Of a stretch of 24,054 bases of DNA, positions 2,807 through 24,054 are shown one piece after another. Below the pieces are notes generated by a model. The model saw nothing but the letters and a program-made list of their open reading frames with translations. It searched no databases and was not told the origin of the DNA. The DNA is from a virus (Duplodnaviria > Caudoviricetes). The position numbers and the translations under genes were made by a program. The first letter of the stretch is position 1; every line of letters starts with the position of its first letter. Location: positions 1-24,054 of the IMG/VR virus record IMGVR_UViG_3300044724_000207; one strand, given 5' to 3'.

Positions 2807-3583
2807 TTAAAAAAATCTATCCCATATTTCCTTAAAATCGTCTGGTTTTTCAAAATAATCCCACATATTATCAACTGGATGTGGTATTTTTCTCATTACT
2901 GGACGTTCTAAGGGGTCTAAACTATCGTCTAACTTATCACTTAGTCGGACAATTGAGTGACTATCTTCCGCTAATTCTTCGTATGATATCCATTTATCAG
3001 TTGTTTCTTCGCAATTATTGTTATATCTTACTAACGAATCATACCAGATTGGGAAGAAATCGTGAGCAAACTTATCAAAGTTTCCTACTAATGTCTTTCT
3101 TTTATTGCTTATATAATCCGCAGATTCTTTATTATGTGCGTGAAACATATTTACATCGTTAATCGCTACACATAAAGCGGTTGACATAAACCACTTTAAC
3201 TTATCTTTACGGTATAAGGATATTACTTCCCACCCTTCATTTTTCAACTCAGATACGTGTGCATACTCTTTTTCATTCCAAATATTTGAAATAGTAAAGG
3301 GTAATTTATTAGTTTTTAACTCTTCACTAATATCCTCATAGTTAGAACCAAAAGGATGTTCCGTACCATAATGGTCTAAAGATAATCCTGCAAAAGGTTC
3401 TATGGGATTCTTAATATGAGTATAGCAGTCTGGAGTGTCTAAATTATTCATTAGACCATAAACCTGCATATAACAATTACCCCAAAGAGGTTTCCAAGAT
3501 TCATCTTGTTTAACCAAGTTGTCCATAATAATATTGTGAGCGAAGTACGAACCTGTCCTCGCCATCGTATTTAATATAATCAA
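2807..3583 (-). CDS. PAPS-dependent sulfotransferase-like protein (Stf0/NodH-like P-loop fold)
   Basis: Likely start is the TTG at 3583, just after the gp67 stop (MIILNTMARTGSYF, ~258 aa). It has a 5'-PSB-like RTGS loop after a hydrophobic strand, a 3'-PB-like ISLYRKDKLKWFMS and a downstream ISYEEL motif. The track's extension to 3637 overlaps gp67 and is probably spurious. Confidence 0.7.
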   Translation of the reverse strand: MIILNTMARTGSYFAHNIIMDNLVKQDESWKPLWGNCYMQVYGLMNNLDTPDCYTHIKNPIEPFAGLSLDHYGTEHPFGSNYEDISEELKTNKLPFTISNIWNEKEYAHVSELKNEGWEVISLYRKDKLKWFMSTALCVAINDVNMFHAHNKESADYISNKRKTLVGNFDKFAHDFFPIWYDSLVRYNNNCEETTDKWISYEELAEDSHSIVRLSDKLDDSLDPLERPVMRKIPHPVDNMWDYFEKPDDFKEIWDRFF

Positions 3584-3587
3584 TGTC

Positions 3588-3926
3588 TTAGTTTTCTTCT
3601 GAGTCTTCTTCGGTGTCTTCTTCGTATTCCACTTCATCGTGGTCTGAGATTTCTACATTTTCTAAATCTTCAACTTCTGGCAACGTGTCCTCTTCGTCTC
3701 CGATTATACCTTCTTCGTCATCTAAAAGGTCTTCGTCAGCGTCATTAAAGATTGCTTGTGCAGTCGCAATACGTTGTGCTTCTAGTGCGTCTGCCATTTT
3801 ATCCGTGACAATACTATGGAATGAACCTTCTGCTTTGTTAAGGTCACCTGTAGTAATCTGATTGATAAGTTCTGCAACCGCAGTAGGTTCTTCGGTCTGA
3901 ACTTCTTGATTATCTAATTCACTCAT
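3588..3926 (-). CDS. gp67: Prohead core protein (gp67-like), highly acidic
   Basis: 112 aa with a D/E-rich C-terminal half, immediately downstream of the portal gene as in T4-like phages. Confidence 0.7.
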   Translation of the reverse strand: MSELDNQEVQTEEPTAVAELINQITTGDLNKAEGSFHSIVTDKMADALEAQRIATAQAIFNDADEDLLDDEEGIIGDEEDTLPEVEDLENVEISDHDEVEYEEDTEEDSEEN

Positions 3927-12286: not shown

Positions 12287-15200
12287 TTAGTTTAACAACG
12301 TGCCTGCGTTGTTATATACATTAATTCTATAGTGAGCACCTTCTTGACCGTCAAGTAGGTCAGCGTTTAATCCACTTGAAGCACCGTCTACAGTCTTAAT
12401 TGCGGTTAGAAGTTCACTTGCAGTAGAATATGTCTCACTAAATGAGATAACACCAGTAGTATTATTATACGCTATGTCACCAGTTGCGGAGATAAGTCCT
12501 CTAACTTGTGCGTCAGTTCTTTGTGTAAATGATACTACACCAGTAGTAGAGTTATATGCAAGGTCACCACCTGCACTAATCTTACCACGAATCTCTGCGT
12601 CACTCGGCCCAGTATATGTGATTACACCAGTGCCAGAGTTATAAGAAGCAGAACCAGCTCCACCTGCGTCTGTTAGAGAGATTGAACCTCTTGCATCAGC
12701 AGTAGTAAACTTAGTTACACTAAATTGACCAGTACCACTATTATATGCAAGGTCTCCACCTGCGGAGAACATTGCACGAATCTCTGCACTTGTATGTTGT
12801 GCAGAATCAGTAAATGAGAATTGACCAGTTCCAGAGTTATAACTTAAATCACCACCAGCAGAGAATAATCCTCTAATCTGAGCAGGACTTCTATCCGATT
12901 CAGTAAAGGACATTACACCAGTTGATGCATTATAACTTAGGTCTCCACCTGCACTAATAGCACTTCTTGCTCTTGCGGTTGTGTGATAGAGATTAGTATT
13001 CTCTGTCAAGTCCGCAGTAGTGAATGGGTCAAGTGTAATTACGTCAGTAAAGTTACCAGTAGACGTATTGATTGTTAATGTTCCACCAGTACTATCAAAG
13101 TCTACACCAGTAATACCAGATACACCAACTGTTCCAACACTATCAACAAAACCATTTGCGTCAACAGTTATAACAGGAATTGCAGTATTTGAACCATAAG
13201 TTCCTGCACTTACTGTAGTTTGTGCGTCACGATTTACTTCACCAGTAAATGTTCCACCTGCAAAGTTACCACTCGCATCACGAGCAATAATTGCAGAAGC
13301 AGTATTTGCACTTGTGGCAGTGGTTGCAGAGTTCTGAACTTTACCTGCGGTACTAATAGTTGCAAGTTTACTATCAGCAATATTAGCACTTGCATTAATA
13401 TCTGCGTTTACGATACTGCCTGGGTTGTATGCAGTTGTAAGTGTTACGTTACCTGTTCCGTCAAAGGATACCGCACTTGCAGTAATATCACCTGTTAAGG
13501 AGAAGTCTCTACCAGTTGCAAGAGCAGAAGCAGTTTGAGCATTACCTGTTACCGCACCAATCAGACTACCTTCAAACGTATCTGCAACTAGAGTCGCAAG
13601 ACTAAATGAAGAGTCAGCGGCATTAATTGTTCCTGTAGGTGTTGAGTCATACTCGTCAATGATTTTCCACTTTTCGTCAGTGACATCAAACCATAGACCC
13701 ATATGGGTATAACCGACACCACTTGTACCAGTGTTTCGGTTTGTGAAGAAACCAGTATCTACATTAACAGGAGAAGCAGTACCAGACCATCTATCACCAC
13801 TATCGTGACCTGTAGTCGCACCAAACTCAACCGAGATATTATCGGCAGAGTGAATAAGTTGTGGGTCACCAGTAATATTCTGTTTTGTAAGAATAGGAGA
13901 TGTAAACGCACTATCTGTTCCAAGTGCAACAGCAAAGGTATCTACACCACTTGCACCAGTTCCTACACCATCAATTCTTACATAGTAAGTTTGTGCAGTA
14001 GTTCCTGTAAAGTGACCTGCAAAGAAGGCATCGTCAAGACCAGTACCAGTAAAGACTGTTCCTGCTTCACCAATCGCATCACCTTCGTTAAGACGATAGA
14101 TTGGAGAACCCTGAGTTACATTAGATGTACCTACAGTGGTCTGACTACCTAAAATTGTTAAGTTACCGTCAACCTGTAAGTCTGTACCAATGTGTGCTGA
14201 AGTTTGAACACGGAAAGAACGAACCGAGTGGTTCTGTTGATTGACAAGTAAAATACCGTTATCTGAATCACCAGTTTTAACAACCCAACCCAAACACATA
14301 GGGAAGTTTGGATATGTCGGAGATGCATTCTGGTGTGAACCAGGCGTAGTCACGGATACGAAGAAGTTCGTTCCGTCACTCAAGTGTGCAGTATTAACAT
14401 TAGTCAACTGACCAGCAATCAAACAGTGACCATAAGAGTTGTTTGAAATATCTTGAGCAGCAATACCTTGAGCGTTATATGCGTTTACGTCTGTTGCGTC
14501 TGCAAGACCAACAGTCGGAACGTCAATAATACCTGAAGTATAGTTACCACTAAAGTATAATGCATTACCTTTCTTAATGGTTGCACCAGTATTGTTAAAT
14601 ACACGTTGGTGTTCTTGAGTACCAACCTCGTGAACCATTCCAGTAATATCATCATTATAGTTTAGTGTCTTATGTTTGTTATCGTAGTATAATAGACCTT
14701 CACTATATGGTTGATGTGAATCAAAAGTACTTGTATCAAACTGAACGTGTAAAAGTGAAGCAGAGTCAGCTACTATTTGTGATGTTTTAAGTTTATTCTC
14801 AACACGTAGGTCATCAAAATGTTCACTTTGTGGGTCAACAAGGATTACACCGTTGTTTGCATCAACAGTTAAAACACGACCAATATGGAAAGGATAACCA
14901 GTATCAACTGTTACAGGTGTTTCTGTTACCACACCTGCGGAGTCTGGAGATAGGAATAGAACATTACCTGCTGTCATTCCACTAGTGTTTACGTCACGAA
15001 CTAGACCATATCTTGTTACCCAACCGTGAGCACCATCAGGAATGTCCATAGTCGCAAGACCAGTCGCTTGACCAGTTGACGATGTGTTTGCACGTGCAAG
15101 AGATACTTGTGGGTGTTTACCGTGTGCAGTTCCAGAAATATAGACTGCATCACCATTGTCAATCTGAGCACCAGTTAAGTTATGGACATATAAGAATATC

Positions 15201-18200
15201 TCTTGTCCAATATTAAGAGTTACGTCAGGATTCGGATTGTTCTGAGTATCCATAACAACAGACAAACCTTTTTGGTGGTCTGAGTCAAAGAATACTGTTC
15301 CTGCGGTATTTGAATGTCTTGATGTTAAAACATTAAAGTTGATTCCATCAACAACCGCAGAGTCTAATGTGGTCTTCGCAAAGGTTACGTTATCAGTAGT
15401 TCCTACAGGTTGACCAATAGAAATTGTTCCACCTGCATTGATAGTAACACCAGAACCACCATTGAAATGCGCTCTTACTTCTGTCGCACTCGGCCCTGTA
15501 TAGGTAAAGACACCTGAACCACTGTCATAGGTAAGTGAACCGTCACCACCTGCGTCATTGACTAAGAGAGACGCTTTTGCATCACTGTCTGCTCTTGATG
15601 TAGTATAATAGAGGTTAGACCCTTCTGATAAGTCTGAAGTAGAGTTTGCAACAAACTTCGCATCAATATCACTATCTACACGAGATTTTACGTAATAGAG
15701 ATTTGTTCCTTCAGAAACATCTGAAGTGGATTTGGTTGCAAGTCTAGTATCAAAGTCTGTATTACTACGTGCAGTAGTATAATATAAATTAGACCCTTCT
15801 GTCAAGTCTGTTGTAGATTTAATTCCAAATCTAACATCAAAAGCACTATCATCACGTGATTGTGTATAGTATAAATTAGACCCTTCTGCAAGATTTGTGG
15901 TTGTCTTGGTTGCAAGTCTTGTATCAAAATCAGTATTCGCTCTTGCAGTCGTATAATACAGATTACTACCTTCAGTGATATCTGAAGTAGTATTTGCAAG
16001 AGTTGTAAACGAAAGGTTGCCAATACTCGCACTATCTGATATAATATTAGTAATCGTACCAGTAGTAGTTGTGAGGGTAGTAATACCTGCACTATCAATT
16101 TGTGATGTCAGTCTAGTTAAGAAGTCACTATCAAAATTTGCTTGAGAGTAGACGTTCTCAACATCAATTGAGAATACACCAGTAGAAGAATCGTAGGATA
16201 GGTCACCTGTTGCACTAAAGTGTGCCCTTACCTCAGATGAACTCGGCCCTGTATAAGTGAATACACCTGTTGAACTATCGTATGATAATGAACCATCACC
16301 ACCAGTATCGTTTACTAGTAAAGACGCTTTTGCGTCACTATCTGCACGAGCAGAGGTATAAAATAGATTAGTTGAACCTTCTGCAATATCGTCTAGGTCT
16401 TTAGTTGCAAGTTGAGCGTCCCATCTTGCAGTTGTATAATAGAGATTGGTTGACCCTTCGCTGAGTTTATCTGTATCAGCAGAGTCTAAGTTTCTATCAA
16501 AATCACTATCTACACGTGCTTGTGTATAATAGAGATTTGTCCCTTCGGTTAAATTTGTAGTTGTATATGGGTCTAAAGTAATTGTTGTGAGGAATGTATT
16601 TCCGTCAGCAGTATTAATAGAGATATTTCCGTTTGCAGAATCAAACGAGAATGATGATACAGCTGCAACATCTACAGTAGTTGCACTATCTAATTGACCT
16701 TGGTCATTGACTCTGAATACTGGAATTTTTGTGCTAGAACCATATGTGCCACCAACAACATTAGTATTAGTAATAGAAATGGTATCGTTTGCACTATCGT
16801 ATGTGATTCCTGTTCCACCGTCAAGGGCAGCACCTAAATCAGAATCAAAGTTAGACTTTGTATAAACCTGTTCTACATCAAAGGTAAAGTTACCTGTTGC
16901 AGAATCATAAGTTAAGTCTCCACCAGAACTAAACATTCCACGGATAGTTTGGGTAGATGTAGTATCACCCAATGCGGAATCAAATCTCGCACGAGTATAA
17001 TACAGGTTAGTCCCTTCAACTAAATTAGTTGTAGTATATGGGTCAAGAGTTGCAGTAGTGACAAACGAAGCACCATCAGCAGTTCCGATAGTTAGATTAC
17101 CATTAGAAGAATCAAAAGCAAACGAGGTTACACCTGCAACCGCAACTGTTCCTGCACTGTCAAGTTGTCCTTGTGCATTTACAGTAAAGACTGGTATTTG
17201 ACTTGCAGAACCATATGTTCCTGCACTAACTCCTGTATTAGTAATAGAGATAGTATCTGAGGCAGAATCATAAGTAATACCTGTTCCACCATCTAGAGCG
17301 TCACCAAGGTCACTATCAAAGTTTGCTTTAGTATATACTTGTTCTACATCAAAAGAGAATGTTCCTGTTGAGCTATCATAAGATAAGTCACCAGAAGAAG
17401 CAAAGTATCCACGAATAGACGCAATAGAAGTTGCATCACCTAGTGCAGAGTCAAATCTTGCACGAGTATAGTAGAGATTACCACCTTCGGTAATATCACT
17501 TGTAGTATTTGTAAGAGTAGTAAAAGTTAAATTTGTTATACTTGCACTATCAAAGGTTGCATTCGTACCAGTAAGAGTTGTATTGGTCAGAGTTGTAATA
17601 TCACCAGTAGTGATATTTGCAGTAGCAATACTTGCATTATTTGATGTTAAATTAAAAACTTGTTGTAGAGTTGTAGTATCTGAATCAAGTAGTCTATGCC
17701 ATTCACCTGCGTGAGCAAAGTATCCACGACCAGTTGCGTGAACGTGAGCATACATACCGTGATAAACAGAAGCACTAGGAAGGTCACCCTCTGTAGAGTA
17801 AACATTACCATAAAGAAGTTTACCAGTTGTTTCTAAATCTTTATCACCTAATGTCCAACGACCAACACCTTCGTCCCATAGGAACGATACGTTTGCTAGG
17901 TCACCACGTTCAATCTCAATACCACCATTCTCTGAAGGTGTTCCTGTTGCATTTGAATTAAGAACAATAGTATTGTCTGCAAGTTGAATAGTTTCGGTGT
18001 TTACTACTGTTTCTGTACCTGTAACGGTTAGATTACCGTCAAGTACAGTATTACCTGTAACTCTAAGAGTACCAATGTTAGCACTATCAAGAGTCGCTTG
18101 ACTTCCTATTAGATTTGTGTTTACAAGATTAGGAATGGTTGCACTATCAATAGTCGCACCATTGTTTATGGTTAGACCTTGATGGAATGTTTCACTAACG

Positions 18201-18724
18201 TCTGTTCTTGCGATATCAGAATCATTAAATGTAAATAGACCAGTTTCACTATTAAAACTTAGAATATCTGTATTATTACTGGTAAGAGAAATATTTAGTG
18301 AAGTCTTAGTGTTATCATTTGTATCAACAATTACAAACTCACCATTACTATCTTTTAATTGTAGTGTTCCAAGAGTAATTGTATTACCAGTAAGATACAG
18401 GTCTTTCCATTTTTGGTTTATTGTACCAAGACTACGTACTCCATCGGAATCTGGAATAAAGTCACCTGCAAAATTCTCGTTATTAAAACTAAAATTATAT
18501 GCACCTTGACTACTATCATATGTGACATTAATGAACGCATCATTTTTAAGTTTAGTTATTTCATACTTATCTGTTGAACTTCTGTAAGCAAGAATTGAAC
18601 CGTCAGATTCTACTTCGCTAGATACGTCAACACCAGCTAGATTATCAATAGAAAAAGAACCAGAAGTCACCCTTTTAATAGGTGTTCCGACTACAATTTT
18701 CTTTATGTAAATCTTCTCAGACAT
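12287..18724 (-). CDS. Giant repeat-rich virion fibre protein (2145 aa)
   Basis: T/S/G/D-rich protein with many EG(S/T)NLYYT repeats, GGDL(S/T/A)Y(D/N)SxTG repeats and AGTYGS..IPV units, and a C-terminal SGLNADLLDG fibre motif. It lies directly upstream of gp13. Confidence 0.8.
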   Translation of the reverse strand: MSEKIYIKKIVVGTPIKRVTSGSFSIDNLAGVDVSSEVESDGSILAYRSSTDKYEITKLKNDAFINVTYDSSQGAYNFSFNNENFAGDFIPDSDGVRSLGTINQKWKDLYLTGNTITLGTLQLKDSNGEFVIVDTNDNTKTSLNISLTSNNTDILSFNSETGLFTFNDSDIARTDVSETFHQGLTINNGATIDSATIPNLVNTNLIGSQATLDSANIGTLRVTGNTVLDGNLTVTGTETVVNTETIQLADNTIVLNSNATGTPSENGGIEIERGDLANVSFLWDEGVGRWTLGDKDLETTGKLLYGNVYSTEGDLPSASVYHGMYAHVHATGRGYFAHAGEWHRLLDSDTTTLQQVFNLTSNNASIATANITTGDITTLTNTTLTGTNATFDSASITNLTFTTLTNTTSDITEGGNLYYTRARFDSALGDATSIASIRGYFASSGDLSYDSSTGTFSFDVEQVYTKANFDSDLGDALDGGTGITYDSASDTISITNTGVSAGTYGSASQIPVFTVNAQGQLDSAGTVAVAGVTSFAFDSSNGNLTIGTADGASFVTTATLDPYTTTNLVEGTNLYYTRARFDSALGDTTSTQTIRGMFSSGGDLTYDSATGNFTFDVEQVYTKSNFDSDLGAALDGGTGITYDSANDTISITNTNVVGGTYGSSTKIPVFRVNDQGQLDSATTVDVAAVSSFSFDSANGNISINTADGNTFLTTITLDPYTTTNLTEGTNLYYTQARVDSDFDRNLDSADTDKLSEGSTNLYYTTARWDAQLATKDLDDIAEGSTNLFYTSARADSDAKASLLVNDTGGDGSLSYDSSTGVFTYTGPSSSEVRAHFSATGDLSYDSSTGVFSIDVENVYSQANFDSDFLTRLTSQIDSAGITTLTTTTGTITNIISDSASIGNLSFTTLANTTSDITEGSNLYYTTARANTDFDTRLATKTTTNLAEGSNLYYTQSRDDSAFDVRFGIKSTTDLTEGSNLYYTTARSNTDFDTRLATKSTSDVSEGTNLYYVKSRVDSDIDAKFVANSTSDLSEGSNLYYTTSRADSDAKASLLVNDAGGDGSLTYDSGSGVFTYTGPSATEVRAHFNGGSGVTINAGGTISIGQPVGTTDNVTFAKTTLDSAVVDGINFNVLTSRHSNTAGTVFFDSDHQKGLSVVMDTQNNPNPDVTLNIGQEIFLYVHNLTGAQIDNGDAVYISGTAHGKHPQVSLARANTSSTGQATGLATMDIPDGAHGWVTRYGLVRDVNTSGMTAGNVLFLSPDSAGVVTETPVTVDTGYPFHIGRVLTVDANNGVILVDPQSEHFDDLRVENKLKTSQIVADSASLLHVQFDTSTFDSHQPYSEGLLYYDNKHKTLNYNDDITGMVHEVGTQEHQRVFNNTGATIKKGNALYFSGNYTSGIIDVPTVGLADATDVNAYNAQGIAAQDISNNSYGHCLIAGQLTNVNTAHLSDGTNFFVSVTTPGSHQNASPTYPNFPMCLGWVVKTGDSDNGILLVNQQNHSVRSFRVQTSAHIGTDLQVDGNLTILGSQTTVGTSNVTQGSPIYRLNEGDAIGEAGTVFTGTGLDDAFFAGHFTGTTAQTYYVRIDGVGTGASGVDTFAVALGTDSAFTSPILTKQNITGDPQLIHSADNISVEFGATTGHDSGDRWSGTASPVNVDTGFFTNRNTGTSGVGYTHMGLWFDVTDEKWKIIDEYDSTPTGTINAADSSFSLATLVADTFEGSLIGAVTGNAQTASALATGRDFSLTGDITASAVSFDGTGNVTLTTAYNPGSIVNADINASANIADSKLATISTAGKVQNSATTATSANTASAIIARDASGNFAGGTFTGEVNRDAQTTVSAGTYGSNTAIPVITVDANGFVDSVGTVGVSGITGVDFDSTGGTLTINTSTGNFTDVITLDPFTTADLTENTNLYHTTARARSAISAGGDLSYNASTGVMSFTESDRSPAQIRGLFSAGGDLSYNSGTGQFSFTDSAQHTSAEIRAMFSAGGDLAYNSGTGQFSVTKFTTADARGSISLTDAGGAGSASYNSGTGVITYTGPSDAEIRGKISAGGDLAYNSTTGVVSFTQRTDAQVRGLISATGDIAYNNTTGVISFSETYSTASELLTAIKTVDGASSGLNADLLDGQEGAHYRINVYNNAGTLLN
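16500..17500 (-). repeat. Diverged 471-nt (157-aa) tandem duplication inside the giant fibre
   Basis: The EG(G/T)NLYYT(R/Q)AR(F/V)DS anchor recurs at ~17488, ~17017 and ~16546, 471 nt apart. The intervening GDL.YDS.TG...EQVYTK.NFDSDLG.ALDGGTGITYDSA.DTISITNT...GTYGS...IPVF...GQLDSA...TLDPYTTTNL block occurs twice. Confidence 0.85.
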
Positions 18725-19166: not shown

Positions 19167-19841
19167 CTAGAATTCGGACATTATTTCCTCAATTACGTCA
19201 TCTTGAAGTCCTAGAGACATATCACTACGGTCAAAGATATAGGATACCGTGATTCTCCAACAGTCAGTTTCGGCAGCGTGATAGACTCTTTTATACCAAG
19301 GTTCGTGATATGCACCAAAATATCCTGCTTTACATTGCCATCCTTTTTTATCTTGCATAACAACTTCTTTACCAGTATGTCCATCAACATATCTAAAAAC
19401 ACCGTCACCTGTCTCCGACCAAGAGAAAATAATGTTATATGCAGAAGCATTTGCATTATTATGCCACGAAATAAATCCATCTGGAGGATACATTTGAGTT
19501 AATGCATTGTTTCGTGTAGATAAAAGAGAACAAAGTTCTGTATTATATTCACTATATCGTGTGATAAATCCTGCCGCTTCTGGATTACTTTCACGACCTT
19601 CAATGTGATGTAATCGGTCAGCTTTCAGTGCATATGAATGTCCTGCGTCTGGAAATCCTTCGTGTGCAGTATCTTGAGCAATAATCTCATCACGATATTT
19701 TTCAGACATAAAATATTTTCTGTCTTTTGGTTCACCGTGTAATTTTAGATTTCTTGCAACAACATCCTTGTTTTCATAATACCATAGGAAGTTATTAAGT
19801 GCTTTTAACACATCTGGGTTTTTAATAGGAATGTCTTTCAT
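19167..19841 (-). CDS. Cupin/2OG-Fe(II) oxygenase-like protein
   Basis: The double-stranded beta-helix pattern YPPDGFISWHNN...YHAAETDCWRITVSY gives H-x-N, a distal His and a distal Arg. The canonical HxD is replaced by HxN. Confidence 0.55.
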   Translation of the reverse strand: MKDIPIKNPDVLKALNNFLWYYENKDVVARNLKLHGEPKDRKYFMSEKYRDEIIAQDTAHEGFPDAGHSYALKADRLHHIEGRESNPEAAGFITRYSEYNTELCSLLSTRNNALTQMYPPDGFISWHNNANASAYNIIFSWSETGDGVFRYVDGHTGKEVVMQDKKGWQCKAGYFGAYHEPWYKRVYHAAETDCWRITVSYIFDRSDMSLGLQDDVIEEIMSEF

Positions 19842-20584
19842 ACTATAAGTTTATCCTTCTGGAGTGAACCAGAGTAATGTCTTAGGATAGGTGGTTTGTC
19901 TTCAATAGACTTTAGACCTTCATATCCGTATTGAGTAAAATAATTCCAACGAATATCATCGTGGAAGATACCTATTTTTAATTCTTTATATTTAGGGTCT
20001 TTTTCGGTTAGATACCAAAGGGTTGTTTGGTCAAAGTGTTTAAGGTCTCTATCAAATTGTTCACTATCAAACTCTTTGGGTTTCCACATACCACTATGTT
20101 GTTTGTTAAACAATTCAAACCAGTCTTCCATAAACTCACGAACTAATTGATTACCACTTCGGTAGAGACATACACCCCCACATAAAGTAAACTTTTCCAT
20201 CTTACCTGCATATTTGAATTCACGAATCGCATAATACTTTTCACGTTCTGGAGTTAGTTCGTGAAAAACCATATCACGGTCACCTAATTCATCCCACACC
20301 TTTGCGATATCTTCGTGTTCACAATCCATATCTGCGTCAACATACATAGTTATGTCATAAGGAGATTGCGACATACCCCATAGTTTTGCACGATAATGGT
20401 CGTCACAAAAGATAACTTGGTCTGCTTCGTCCGCACGTTCATCAATAAAACGTTCTTCGGTGACCAGACATATTTGTGCTTCTGGATACCAGTCTTTGAT
20501 TGATTCTATAAGATTGACTGCGTAAGTATAAAAGTTAGAGTTTCTGGACGCAACAATTACAAAACCTTTACTTGGTATTTTCAT
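19838..20584 (-). CDS. GT-A fold glycosyltransferase (GT8-like / nucleotide-diphospho-sugar transferase)
   Basis: N-terminal GFVIVAS...AVNLIESIK, DxD motif in SPYDITMYVDADM, GGVCLY, DQTTLW (GT8 DQxxLN-like), RWNY and C-terminal ILRHYSG. Confidence 0.8.
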   Translation of the reverse strand: MKIPSKGFVIVASRNSNFYTYAVNLIESIKDWYPEAQICLVTEERFIDERADEADQVIFCDDHYRAKLWGMSQSPYDITMYVDADMDCEHEDIAKVWDELGDRDMVFHELTPEREKYYAIREFKYAGKMEKFTLCGGVCLYRSGNQLVREFMEDWFELFNKQHSGMWKPKEFDSEQFDRDLKHFDQTTLWYLTEKDPKYKELKIGIFHDDIRWNYFTQYGYEGLKSIEDKPPILRHYSGSLQKDKLIV

Positions 20585-21017
20585 CTTCTAGTGCATCCTT
20601 CACAATCATCATAGCGTATAAATTTACTTCTGGAATAGACTTAGAACGTCTGAGTTTTGATTTCAACAGACGATTCTTTGAGTTTTTAATTTCTGCAATC
20701 TCAAAAGTTTCTAGTTTATACTCAAAAAGTTTCTCTAGTTTTTTTGCACGTTCTTGTTCAAGTTTCTTTGCTTTCTCAAGTTCTGCCTCTGCTTGTTTTT
20801 TTGCCAGACGTTTTTTACTTGATTCATCAATTGATTCTTCACCAAGAAACTCAATTACTTCATTGAACAGTTCATTCTCCGAACCGTCATCATTTAGTTT
20901 GTTAAGTTTGTGAACTTGACGAATTTGACGATTGTCAATTTCTTCTTCACTAATTGCATTCAATATTTCTTTTTTGGGTGTTTCCCAGAATGCATTATCT
21001 AACCATTTTCTTGCCAT
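20568..21017 (-). CDS. Hypothetical protein, charged/helical (149 aa)
   Basis: Clear GGAG RBS; overlaps the GT start by 17 nt. No catalytic motif recognised. Confidence 0.7.
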   Translation of the reverse strand: MARKWLDNAFWETPKKEILNAISEEEIDNRQIRQVHKLNKLNDDGSENELFNEVIEFLGEESIDESSKKRLAKKQAEAELEKAKKLEQERAKKLEKLFEYKLETFEIAEIKNSKNRLLKSKLRRSKSIPEVNLYAMMIVKDALEDENTK

Positions 21018-21051: not shown

Positions 21052-23718
21052 TTATGCAGTTCTCTGATAAAGGGTGTAAGTTGTAATTGTAGAACTTCCA
21101 GCATCAATCGTTGTTCCTACATAGTTTCCTACAAAGTTTCCTGTAAAGTCTCCAATAAAGTTACCTTGGTAGTTTCCTTCAAAACTTGCTAAACTTGTAC
21201 GAGTTCTACTATAAGCACTTGAACGAACTACTACAGAAGTTCTTTGGAAGTTATCAGTAAAGTTATTCGTAGAGTTTCTGGTTGAAGTTCTAGTATATGT
21301 AGATACTCTTGTTCTTTGATAATTATCACTGTATATAGAAGTTCTAGTTCTACTATATGCTTGAGAGTATACAGACGAACGATTTCTCTGATAATCGTCA
21401 GTAAAACTTCTAGAATAATCACCAGTATAGTCACCTACAAAGTCACCTACAAAGTCAGTTATTGCATCTCTAGTATAATCTTGAGAGAAATCACGAGCAT
21501 AATTTCCTTCAAAGTTTTGTATGAAATCACCAGTAAACGGCCCTGTAGTTGAATCACGAGTAGAAGTTCTAGTATATGCTCTTGCGTAATCACCAACATA
21601 ATTACCTAAGAAATTACCAGTATATGTGGTAGCACGGTTTGTTGCACGAGTTCTAGTAAAGTTACGTGAATAGTTCCCTTCGAAACTTCTTGTAAAGTCA
21701 CCTATAAAATTAGTTTGTCTATCTCTGGTGAAATCAGTAGCACGAGTTCTAAGAAAGTTACGTGAATAGTTACCAGTATAATTACCAGTATAATCTGCAA
21801 CATAATCAGTTACACGAGTTCTTTGATAATTGGTTGCACGAGTTCTAGTAAAGGTGTTTGCATAGTTACCAGTATAATCAGCCACATAGTTTGCTACAGT
21901 TGTTCTTGTATAATCAGTAGCACGAGTTCTAGTAAAGGTGTTTGCATAGTTACCAGTAAAGTCAGCGACATAGTTTGTAACACGAGTTCTTGAATAGTAA
22001 TATACAGTACCACCTTTTGTTTGTCTGGTAGAAACAACTGTGAAATCACCAGTATAGGTTACTGTTCTGTTTCTAGTAAAGGTGTTTGCATAGTTACCAA
22101 CAAAGTTACCAACATAGTTACCTACAAAGTCACCAGTAAAGGTTGCTGTTCTGTTTCTAGTAAAGGTGTTTGTATAGTTACCAACAAAGTTACCAGTATA
22201 ATCACCAAGGAAATTACCAGTAAAGGTTGCTGTTCTGTTTCTGGTATAGTCAGCAGAATAAGCTAGAGCGTAGTTTCCTACAAAGTCTCCAACATAGTTA
22301 CCTGTAAAGTTACCAGTAAAGGTTGTGGCATAACTTTCTACTCTAGTTCTAGCATATGCTTGAGCATAGTTACCAACAAAATCACCAACAAAATCACCAA
22401 CATAATCAGTAACTCTGGTTCTTGTATAATCTAGAGAGAAATTACGCTGATAGTCACCTACGAAGTTACCTGCATAGTTTCCTACAAAATCTTCTAATCT
22501 AATTCTTTGATAGTTTTGACTAAAGTTTCTTGCATAGTTACCAACATAGTTTCCTACGAAGTTACCTGCATAGGTTGTAATCCTAGTTCTAGAATATACC
22601 TGAGAATATGCACGTGCATAGTTTCCAATATAATTTCCTAAGAAATTTCTAGAATAGTTACCAACATAGTTTCCTTCAAAGTTTCTTGAATAATCACCAA
22701 TATAATCCCCAATGAAACTTCTAGAGTAATCTCCAATAAAATTACCTGCGAAATCTCCTGTAAAGTCTCCTATGTAGTCACCAAGGAAGTTTGCACTAAA
22801 GTTTCTGGTATAATTACCAACAAAGTCTGTATTCGCAGTTGAAGTTCTGAGTGAAGTTCTAACAGAATCTATTTCAGTATTTCTTGTAGAAGTTCTGGTA
22901 TAATCCGCATCAGTTAAATCATAACGACTATCTGTTGCAGTTCCTCTGGATGACCAAGTTCCTGAATCGGTGGGAGCACCTTGAACATTAGTTCTTAATT
23001 GATATGTACCTACTCCACTGGTGCCATTCATTATACGAGATTGGACTCTTGACCCAAACGTATATTTAATTTCGGCATCCGTCATTTCTTGGAGACCTTG
23101 GAACGAACCAGTTAGACCAGACGAACGTTTAACTGCAACAGGTCTTACGGCAGTTGGAGGAGTCATTGAAGACTTTACATATAAATTGTATTGTGTACCT
23201 GATTGGTTTGTTTGCAATCTGTCAAAAAATACACCTGATTTATAGGTTGAGTATGTTCCGTCTGGAGCAGACGAACCTAATTTGTATATGCCTGGGTATT
23301 CAGATGTTGCAATACGAGAAGTAAGTCTGTCAGTAAGTGTATCTAATTCCGCAGAATCTAATTCGTGAAGTTCTGGAGTTCCACCATTATCAACAAACTC
23401 AGTCGGATATCTAAATGCCGCTGAATCTCCACTAAAGTCTGCAACACCTTCTTTTTGATATAAAGATGTTGTTGTGGAAACAACAGGAACATTACCAGCT
23501 GCAAATCCGTGTGTGCCTGGGGCATCGTCATAGGTAGTATCGGTATATGTACCGATTAAGGTATTATTAGTACTTACTTGGGTTAGGGTTGAGACATCAC
23601 TAGAATCCAACGCAGAAAGGTGCAACCCTGCTTGATACGCAAGGTAGTTCTCCTCTGTTGTTGTTATCTCCTTGAGGTCTCCATTAGTGCCTTCAAGTTT
23701 TAGTGTCGTAGTTCCCAT
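21052..23718 (-). CDS. Tetrapeptide-repeat fibre-like protein (888 aa); predicted giant beta-hairpin inserted in a globular domain
   Basis: aa 1-270 are non-repetitive. aa ~272-868 have a 4-residue period, with [FY]-x-G-[ND] and [FY]-x-R-x-R units. The protein ends TYTLYQRTA. Confidence 0.8.
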   Translation of the reverse strand: MGTTTLKLEGTNGDLKEITTTEENYLAYQAGLHLSALDSSDVSTLTQVSTNNTLIGTYTDTTYDDAPGTHGFAAGNVPVVSTTTSLYQKEGVADFSGDSAAFRYPTEFVDNGGTPELHELDSAELDTLTDRLTSRIATSEYPGIYKLGSSAPDGTYSTYKSGVFFDRLQTNQSGTQYNLYVKSSMTPPTAVRPVAVKRSSGLTGSFQGLQEMTDAEIKYTFGSRVQSRIMNGTSGVGTYQLRTNVQGAPTDSGTWSSRGTATDSRYDLTDADYTRTSTRNTEIDSVRTSLRTSTANTDFVGNYTRNFSANFLGDYIGDFTGDFAGNFIGDYSRSFIGDYIGDYSRNFEGNYVGNYSRNFLGNYIGNYARAYSQVYSRTRITTYAGNFVGNYVGNYARNFSQNYQRIRLEDFVGNYAGNFVGDYQRNFSLDYTRTRVTDYVGDFVGDFVGNYAQAYARTRVESYATTFTGNFTGNYVGDFVGNYALAYSADYTRNRTATFTGNFLGDYTGNFVGNYTNTFTRNRTATFTGDFVGNYVGNFVGNYANTFTRNRTVTYTGDFTVVSTRQTKGGTVYYYSRTRVTNYVADFTGNYANTFTRTRATDYTRTTVANYVADYTGNYANTFTRTRATNYQRTRVTDYVADYTGNYTGNYSRNFLRTRATDFTRDRQTNFIGDFTRSFEGNYSRNFTRTRATNRATTYTGNFLGNYVGDYARAYTRTSTRDSTTGPFTGDFIQNFEGNYARDFSQDYTRDAITDFVGDFVGDYTGDYSRSFTDDYQRNRSSVYSQAYSRTRTSIYSDNYQRTRVSTYTRTSTRNSTNNFTDNFQRTSVVVRSSAYSRTRTSLASFEGNYQGNFIGDFTGNFVGNYVGTTIDAGSSTITTYTLYQRTA
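21115..22905 (-). repeat. 12-nt-period coding repeat with a superimposed 84-nt (28-aa) period
   Basis: Recurrent atagttacc/aaagttacc/aaagtcacc units. Near-identical blocks start at 21841/21925 and at 22062/22146/22230, each 84 nt apart. Confidence 0.9.
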
Positions 23719-23723
23719 AACTC

Positions 23724-23730
23724 TATTTAG
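23724..23730 (-). promoter_or_regulatory. Possible variant late promoter CTAAATA overlapping the upstream stop codon
   Basis: Minus strand reads GCC-TAAATA-GAGTT-ATG; the TAAATA core is 5 nt before the ATG of the 888-aa gene. It is not a perfect consensus. Confidence 0.4.
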
Positions 23731-24054
23731 GCAGTTCTAACGTAGAGTGTATAAGTTTCTATATTAGTGCTACCTGACCCAATTTGTTCTCCTGTATAGT
23801 TACCTGTAAAGGTTCTATTATAGTTTCCAAGGAAGTTTCTACCATAATTACCAATAAAGTTACCTACATAGTTTCTAGAATAGTTTCCTTCAAAGGTTGC
23901 GGTAAAGTCTCTGGTATAATTACCTGTAAAGTTTCCAACAAAATCACGAGTATATCCTTCACCACCAAGGTAGTTGGATTGACGTGTTCGAGTAAAGTTT
24001 CTTGAATAATTACCTACAAAAGTTCTTGTAAAGTTTCTTGCATAATTACCTTCA
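23727..24054 (-). CDS. Second tetrapeptide-repeat protein, C-terminal fragment (paralog of the 888-aa protein; runs off the right edge)
   Basis: Not in the ORF track. Manual translation gives ...EGNYARNFTRTFVGNYSRNFTRTRQSNYLGGEGYTRDFVGNFTGNYTRDFTATFEGNYSRNYVGNFIGNYGRNFLGNYNRTFTGNYTGEQIGSGSTNIETYTLYVRTA*, with the same repeat alphabet and the same TYTLYxRTA terminus. Confidence 0.88.
   Translation of the reverse strand, partial: EGNYARNFTRTFVGNYSRNFTRTRQSNYLGGEGYTRDFVGNFTGNYTRDFTATFEGNYSRNYVGNFIGNYGRNFLGNYNRTFTGNYTGEQIGSGSTNIETYTLYVRTA

Follow-up and report, generated by a model that had tools for sequence, protein, structure and literature searches.

The 888-aa stalk protein encoded in the tail region of an uncultured T4-like phage carries a long array of four-residue words that, as read from sequence comparison, match in mirror order about a midpoint, lie on two arms of equal length with mirrored insertions and deletions, and are joined to a threefold base. 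The mirror-matched arms very probably fold back antiparallel, with the outgoing arm paired to the returning one. The complete arrangement favoured here, which is rather likely, is a three-repeat base with a long two-stranded fold-back stalk leaving one of its hairpins, a single chain being placed on the end of a three-chain fibre.

Genomic context of the stalk gene

The window, i.e. the whole stretch of 24,054 nt that was analysed, carries a minus-strand T4-like structural module encoding neck, sheath stabiliser, terminase, sheath and tube proteins, and further genes of this module encoded the portal, protease, scaffold and major head proteins. The features relevant to the stalk gene were as follows (source in brackets).

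21052..23718, minus strand, stalk gene, 888 aa, paralogue B of a pair (ORF list)
22906..23718, minus strand, base domain, aa 1-271, hairpin-helix-beta module in three copies (AlphaFold2 model of P0169, hhalign)
22033..22905, minus strand, outgoing arm, aa 272-562, words [T/V/A/S][G/R][N/D/T][F/Y/R] (sequence indexing)
21994..22032, minus strand, tip or turn STRQTKGGTVYYY, aa 563-575 (midpoint 570 predicted from the anchors)
21115..21993, minus strand, returning arm, aa 576-868 (sequence indexing)
21535..21546, minus strand, one-residue bulge TGPF in the returning arm, aa 725-728 (phase track)
22825..22842, minus strand, two-residue phase slip in the outgoing arm, aa ~293-298 (phase track)
21181..21192, minus strand, matching two-residue phase slip in the returning arm, aa ~843-846 (phase track; 295+845=1140)
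21055..21114, minus strand, C-terminal strand TTIDAGSSTITTYTLYQRTA, predicted to rejoin the third base repeat (conservation, P0169 model)
23727..24054, minus strand, 3' end of upstream paralogue A (873 aa in contig L001, with a globular insert)
12287..18724, minus strand, 2145-aa fibre gene before the neck genes, ending RINVYNNAGTLLN (candidate partner)

An identical 888-aa protein was encoded by contig L001, in which a large virion-type gene, a 483-aa tail-fibre-like gene and the 873-aa paralogue A were located upstream of the stalk gene. Downstream of the stalk gene were three small conserved genes, a gene of the type assembling L-shaped fibres, the 2145-aa fibre gene and the neck genes; the stalk gene was flanked by a PHROG tail-fibre gene on one side and by neck and tail genes on the other. 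The slot of the 2145-aa fibre gene before the neck genes corresponded to the place of wac in T4.

Directly 3' of the stalk gene in most sufficiently long loci was a 149-aa gene with a WLDNAFWE motif (window 20568-21017, minus strand), which among annotated phages was found in C48C1 only, as was the stalk gene; its product is a putative chaperone or partner. Two more genes trailed the stalk gene in the inspected loci. The first (248 aa, 19838-20584, minus strand) possessed a DxD motif (YVDADM), and by eye its product presumably resembles GT-A glycosyltransferases; the second (224 aa, 19167-19841, minus strand) encoded a protein taken, likewise by eye, to resemble 2OG-Fe(II)/cupin enzymes. Neither protein matched a family or a PDB entry, and both might modify the fibre. 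A 276-aa ORF (2807-3637, minus strand) between the portal-side and prohead genes, presumably sulfotransferase-like by eye, had no PHROG match.

Mirror pattern in the 888-aa protein

The repeat extended from aa 272 (nt 22905) to aa 868 (nt 21115), as first annotated, and was composed of words with T/V/A/S, G/R, N/D/T and F/Y/R in slots 1 to 4, respectively, giving a stalk rich in Thr, Val, Tyr and Phe and without any His in aa 272-868. The KGG of the tip was located at aa 568-570 (nt 22017-22009). The first-pass annotation had proposed that the chain turns here into one giant antiparallel hairpin, such that the centre of an R-x-R motif meets a Gly of the other arm. Recounting at i+j=1139/1140 gave 16 of 18 centres opposite Gly, with every listed centre and partner right, and the two exceptions, 406 and 578, faced Q734 and V561. 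The other details of that indexing were also confirmed: the TGPF insertion starts at aa 725, Gly occupied 34 of the 66 slot-2 positions of the N arm as compared to 14 of 67 in the C arm, and R275, R279, R287 and R291 at one end faced G864, G860, G852 and G848 at the other, all sums being 1139. At TGPF the phase changes from 3 to 2, and it does so in the C arm alone.

A count of 16, taken as the best over all registers, was reached in none of 2000 unit shuffles and none of 2000 block shuffles. The single sharp register peak that had been expected was absent when this protein was considered alone, since register 1167 scored 15/18, register 1107 14/17 and the parallel offset -157 13/16; the near-equal registers are due to a 28-residue super-repeat near the centre. 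With a pairing matrix trained on 68 other proteins, 1139 was the top register of the 888-aa protein, a score equalled by 0 of 2000 shuffles; register 1167 scored 20.2 against 23.9 for 1139.

The super-repeat, together with the nearly equal scores of neighbouring registers and of one parallel offset in this protein, would fit arms that do not pair at all, the mirror being a by-product of repeat expansion or the stalk a parallel solenoid whose coil has 28 residues. This is very improbable: the best parallel matrix score was 11.1 versus 23.9 for the best antiparallel one, tandem duplication cannot hold distant arms equal over 183-458 residues or mirror their indels (see below), and the C-terminal strand is back at the base in the model. 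An inverted repeat in the DNA was also considered as the source of the mirror and rejected, as only palindromes of 14 and 12 nt were found.

Register tests in homologues

Base-domain searches yielded protein sets of 123 and 103 members as well as 62 loci, and a profile of the base found 565 cluster representatives. Two anchors flanking the stalk, the D of TATD and the Y of TYTLY, were both present in 168 of 326 sequences, 77 of them non-redundant, and the register was fixed from them as D+Y-4 (1140 in the 888-aa protein), leaving no free parameter. In 76 homologues this register was the best among 41 offsets, scoring 100 of 114 within the first 60 residues versus 17-65% at the other in-phase offsets. 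Over 1117 in-phase rungs of these homologues, which share ancestry so that the pooled events are not independent, RxR was opposite a Gly word in 129 of 141 cases (60±5 in 1000 shuffles, maximum 78), Gly-Gly rungs numbered 33 (116±6 in shuffles) and Arg2-Arg2 rungs 19 (85±6 in shuffles). The RxR word was found on either arm, with 93 and 36 cases by direction. Words with a single Arg were opposite Gly in only 229 of 453 cases.

A held-out set was taken from 118 new proteins of the profile search, of which 22 lacked the C anchor, 11 lacked the N anchor and 5 were redundant, leaving 80 complete and non-redundant homologues. Here RxR was opposite Gly in 47 of 59 cases versus 26±3 in shuffles and Gly-Gly rungs were 36 versus 59±4, with a two-unit shift of the register still giving 40/53. 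Six-residue words were mirrored modestly (126/418 at the predicted register and 75-104 at ten other shifts). The homologues lend strong support to antiparallel pairing of the arms about aa ~570 and to an Arg-opposite-Gly code.

The proposed pairing code

The Arg-opposite-Gly code of the first-pass annotation was retained as regards pairing in homologues but not as regards the RxR centre as the key site, because the centre points to the other face. Coupling above shuffles was 0.21-0.25 bits for slot 2 with slot 2 and for slot 2 with slot 4, as compared to 0.06-0.07 bits for slot 2 with slot 3. Since slots 2 and 4 share one face of a beta strand, the Gly would be partnered by both Args, one straight across from it and the other diagonally placed, and since the coding lies on this face the true register would be 1138 or 1140. 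A single Gly was present in 724 rungs (558 expected) and two Gly in 35 (118 expected), whereas rungs with three Arg occurred once (44 expected) and those with four large residues 22 times (52 expected). The wider rule is that a rung has about one Gly and almost never three Arg.

In the mechanism proposed, a pair of words forms a rung, with the slot-2 and slot-4 residues from the two strands making up one face and Thr, Val, Asn and Asp lining the opposite one. Aromatic and Arg side chains would fill the space of the first face as a stack in which Gly gives room, so that an RxR word would require a Gly word opposite, and the order of words would set the register and keep a repetitive chain from slipping. 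The geometry of the Trp/Arg ladder in the thrombospondin type 1 repeat provides a chemical parallel. In this repeat, Arg side chains surround the rings of aromatic residues across antiparallel strands (PMC12000326). The analogy is in chemistry only, as that repeat is a small three-stranded domain stapled by disulfides.

Arm lengths, indels and variants

Among 16 aligned orthologues, the 13 with a residue in the tip column (three gapped there were left out of the count) had arms of 183-458 aa differing by no more than 5, and a repeat centred on a turn, as predicted for relatives, was accordingly seen in these 13; GGKGGxAYNY was found at the same midpoint in several orthologues. Indels read from the alignment were common to both arms (14/14, 4/4 and 5/5 residues). 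In the 888-aa protein the phase slip at aa ~295 was opposite that at ~845, and mirrored slips were also observed in homologues L013, L017, P0027, P0066 and P0094, others carrying one-sided bulges. Together with the homologue counts, the equal arms and shared indels largely refute an absence of pairing.

The stalk varied widely in size, with anchor spacings of 136-2027 across 157 proteins and short natural members of ~390-420 aa. The protein of C48C1, the only annotated phage with a homologue, has 3347 aa (L063 19980-30023) and folded into 254 rungs, its turn being occupied by a small domain, with a score of 88.6 versus 29.8±5.6 in 20 shuffles with a program that favours the pairing code by design; five large gaps on the return arm coincided with non-repeat inserts. 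A stretch of ~74 aa including non-repeat sequence was present twice exactly near aa 1970-2110 of this protein, possibly an assembly duplication. For paralogue A and P0057, both with large inserts, the crude folding program gave no gain over shuffles. Blind location of the tip was weak, being within 5% of the centre in 1 of 17 proteins and within 10% in 7 of 17, with 60 of the 77 proteins not usable, and the least periodic window fell within the central fifth in just 33 of 77.

Other word alphabets were also observed, such as YIGNPNIN on both arms and GVRDVNF against GPQPQNF (P0011-P0023, P0312 and L038 3148-4491), and a six-residue YAGPTN against an eight-residue YLGEASGAVN breaks simple equal-step pairing. 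Pro-rich stalks were represented by GNPNINY in P0011-P0023 and GPQPQNF in P0312. Pro occurred 149 times in 5255 four-residue words, on both parities, and its parity did not discriminate between a ribbon and a barrel.

Base domain and structure models

In the AlphaFold2 model of P0169, residues 1-270 and the last 18 residues were confident, with mean pLDDT of 76-98 in the base blocks and of 94 and 97 in the last two blocks, which comprise the C-terminal strand. Three base repeats were located at aa ~4-90, ~101-186 and ~191-268, with hhalign probabilities of 83%, 85% and 93% between repeats. The last hairpin is closed by a short loop in repeats 1 and 2, and by the whole stalk plus the C-terminal strand in repeat 3. 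The C-terminal residues T880, Y881, T882, L883, Y884 and R886 were near-invariant, and W255, placed in a strand, was the sole invariant Trp. As the last ~18 residues close the base in the homologue model, the ~600 residues between are predicted to be a loop insertion.

A beta-ribbon of ~300 residues per arm and ~100 nm had been proposed for the stalk. Folding back about aa ~570 agreed with the data above, but beta form and length did not gain support from AlphaFold2 (pLDDT ~30), which in two runs on short homologues rather than on the 888-aa protein gave no confident stalk, pLDDT being <50 at residues 270-394 and 267-406. In the P0169 model, strands leave the base at residues 250-279 and 382-415; in the low-confidence model of P0148, beta-bridges were symmetric about a sum of ~670, where the anchors predict 671, the pairing being taken from bridge symmetry and not from contacts. 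That these bridges are only scattered, and that Pro-rich variants are present, would fit arms in mirror register but irregular, for instance a double strand of coiled or polyproline-like form, or ribbons of several copies bundled side by side. We regard this as improbable, because the strict two-residue alternation of coupling, the richness in Thr, Val, Tyr and Phe and the modelled strands leaving the base suit a beta structure. A two-stranded stalk of beta type is considered probable.

The best fold matches of the base were MABP beta-prisms, namely MVB12B (3tow) and the MACPF proteins 8b6v, 2qp2 and perforin-2 (6sb1), with Z of 6.9, 6.6, 6.3 and 5.4, rmsd of 3.5-6.1, 113-124 aligned residues and 6-12% identity, Z values that the tool calls common. 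The MABP likeness in the model probably reflects a common threefold beta arrangement. The MABP domain of perforin-2 likewise has one hyper-extended hairpin (PMC7593815), far shorter and without a pairing code. Base repeat 3 with the C-terminal strand aligned in one model to T4 gp11 (1EL6) with Z 3.2, rmsd 3.5, 48 aligned residues and 40% identity; 1EL6 was absent from the matches listed with the other base model.

No Pfam family was found for the 888-aa protein and no Gp10_C or collar hit in it or in 62 homologues; hhalign gave 0.1% against one Gp10_C sequence, and HMM scores for Gp10_C or collar profiles were within those of shuffles. PHROG returned one weak match (E 0.003) and NCBIfam a composition-level match only, whereas the profile hit no PDB sequence below E 0.3, and structure searches of PDB and BFVD by Foldseek returned no match at E<=0.001. 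In the ESM Atlas, the base matched unnamed viral clusters only and the stalk had no hit. Atlas clusters of 310-351 aa matched the base structurally with TM 0.51-0.54, a size that fits base-only relatives without stalks.

Comparison with known fibre proteins

The first-pass annotation had not recognised this architecture among described phage fibres. The out-and-back topology is in fact known in the needle of T4 gp37, while no description of the family was found; full-text searches of the literature, covering few subscription papers and no supplements, returned none of this family or of phage C48C1. The gp37 tip consists of collar D10 and needle D11, the needle being a stem-and-tip insertion in the collar domain, and its stem has 50 residues each way in a homotrimer with seven iron-His sites (PMC6957217). 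Both proteins share a chain that exits a collar-type domain, runs along a stem, turns and returns so that the C-terminus completes the collar, as well as Gly opposite an aromatic residue across strands (PMC6957217). In the stalk protein, the stem-and-tip insertion is present, with the C-terminal return to the base predicted in the homologue model, whereas iron-binding His motifs are lacking (no His in the stalk; 0.3% His in 77 stalks). It further differs by ~295 residues each way (~1000 rung residues per arm in C48C1), by its tetrapeptide code and by its three-repeat base, the gp37 stem being non-repetitive.

By analogy, the fold-back hairpins of three chains could pack as a six-stranded needle in which aromatics replace the iron-histidine core and the code is partly between chains. 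The same insertion-in-collar topology in gp37, where Gly packs on Phe of another subunit (PMC6957217), would agree with this, as would the alignment of repeat 3 to gp11 and the blindness of covariation to intra- versus inter-chain pairs. However, the base already has three repeats per chain, arguing against a further trimer, and a narrow barrel would bury the Arg that lies on the aromatic face; free edges would accommodate Pro more readily than a closed barrel would, yet it is found on both parities. Such a needle is unlikely, though less so than irregular arms, and the single-chain ribbon is preferred.

In T4 gp10, gp11 and gp12, the flower motif comprises a helix followed by small sheets with large loop insertions (PMC3004832). 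These proteins are homotrimers with one motif per chain, whereas the stalk protein has three copies in one chain. By eye and via the match to 1EL6, the gp11 end GTWNLLGAQTVT-loop-TVFYHFERTA was comparable to GTWVAKGTATD-stalk-ETYTLYVRTA of the family, and descent from this motif is no more than plausible. The gp38 of phage S16 is a single chain that caps the gp37 trimer through a pseudo-threefold helical attachment and carries the likely host-binding end, with three Trp-tipped helices, a beta-helix and a polyglycine sandwich, and its gene adjoins a fibre gene as does the stalk gene (PMC6851490). No glycine runs were found in the stalk protein, and neither a Trp-tipped three-helix anchor nor a beta-helix was evident. 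The stalk protein would act in the manner of a needle or adhesin, yet on the features tested it belongs to neither of these families.

Candidate fibre partners and possible role

In loci with the paralogue pair, a fibre ending in [IV][YF][DN]xxGxxLN was located just upstream, and the downstream fibre ends likewise; in L038 and C48C1, where a single paralogue is visible, the motif was found downstream only. Two motif-ended fibres and a threefold base suggest, by analogy with gp38 on gp37, one chain capping each trimeric fibre. Whether a single chain caps a fibre is evenly balanced in our estimate. Loci with one paralogue (L035 4169-7973 and L038-L043) had a different fibre set upstream, which in L035 comprised a fibre with an S74 chaperone, a 312-aa unknown protein and a protein ending in Gp10_C.

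Under the favoured arrangement, the stalk would be an insert in one hairpin of the three-repeat base, and the pseudo-threefold base would stand in for a trimeric collar and cap a trimeric fibre, probably the 2145-aa one. The stalk would carry a variable tip, and in relatives also side domains, at a distance from the virion so as to find or bind the host. Host recognition is suggested by the variability of the tips and by the side domains, and host binding at the stalk tip itself has about an even chance. The stalk could, with the scales similarly level, be a new structural class of fibre acting as a natural, programmable ruler, i.e. a single-chain, two-stranded beta-ribbon of ~100 nm here and up to ~330 nm in C48C1, kept in register by four-residue words as RNA stems are by base pairs, with compensatory swaps and paired indels, and capping a trimeric fibre with exchangeable tip and side domains. 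To our knowledge, no free ribbon of two strands and 100 nm has been described before, and it may need partners for stability.

Long repetitive chains usually cannot hold a unique register; the pairing rule of this family is readable and appears to solve register keeping, and word swaps and their rescue are testable as for RNA stems. The family is tractable, with short natural members and, in C48C1, one deposited phage genome. If true, this reading adds a fibre type to marine T4-like phages, which are abundant and for the most part uncultured, places the part that probably binds the host midway along the gene and offers a protein scaffold of tunable length.
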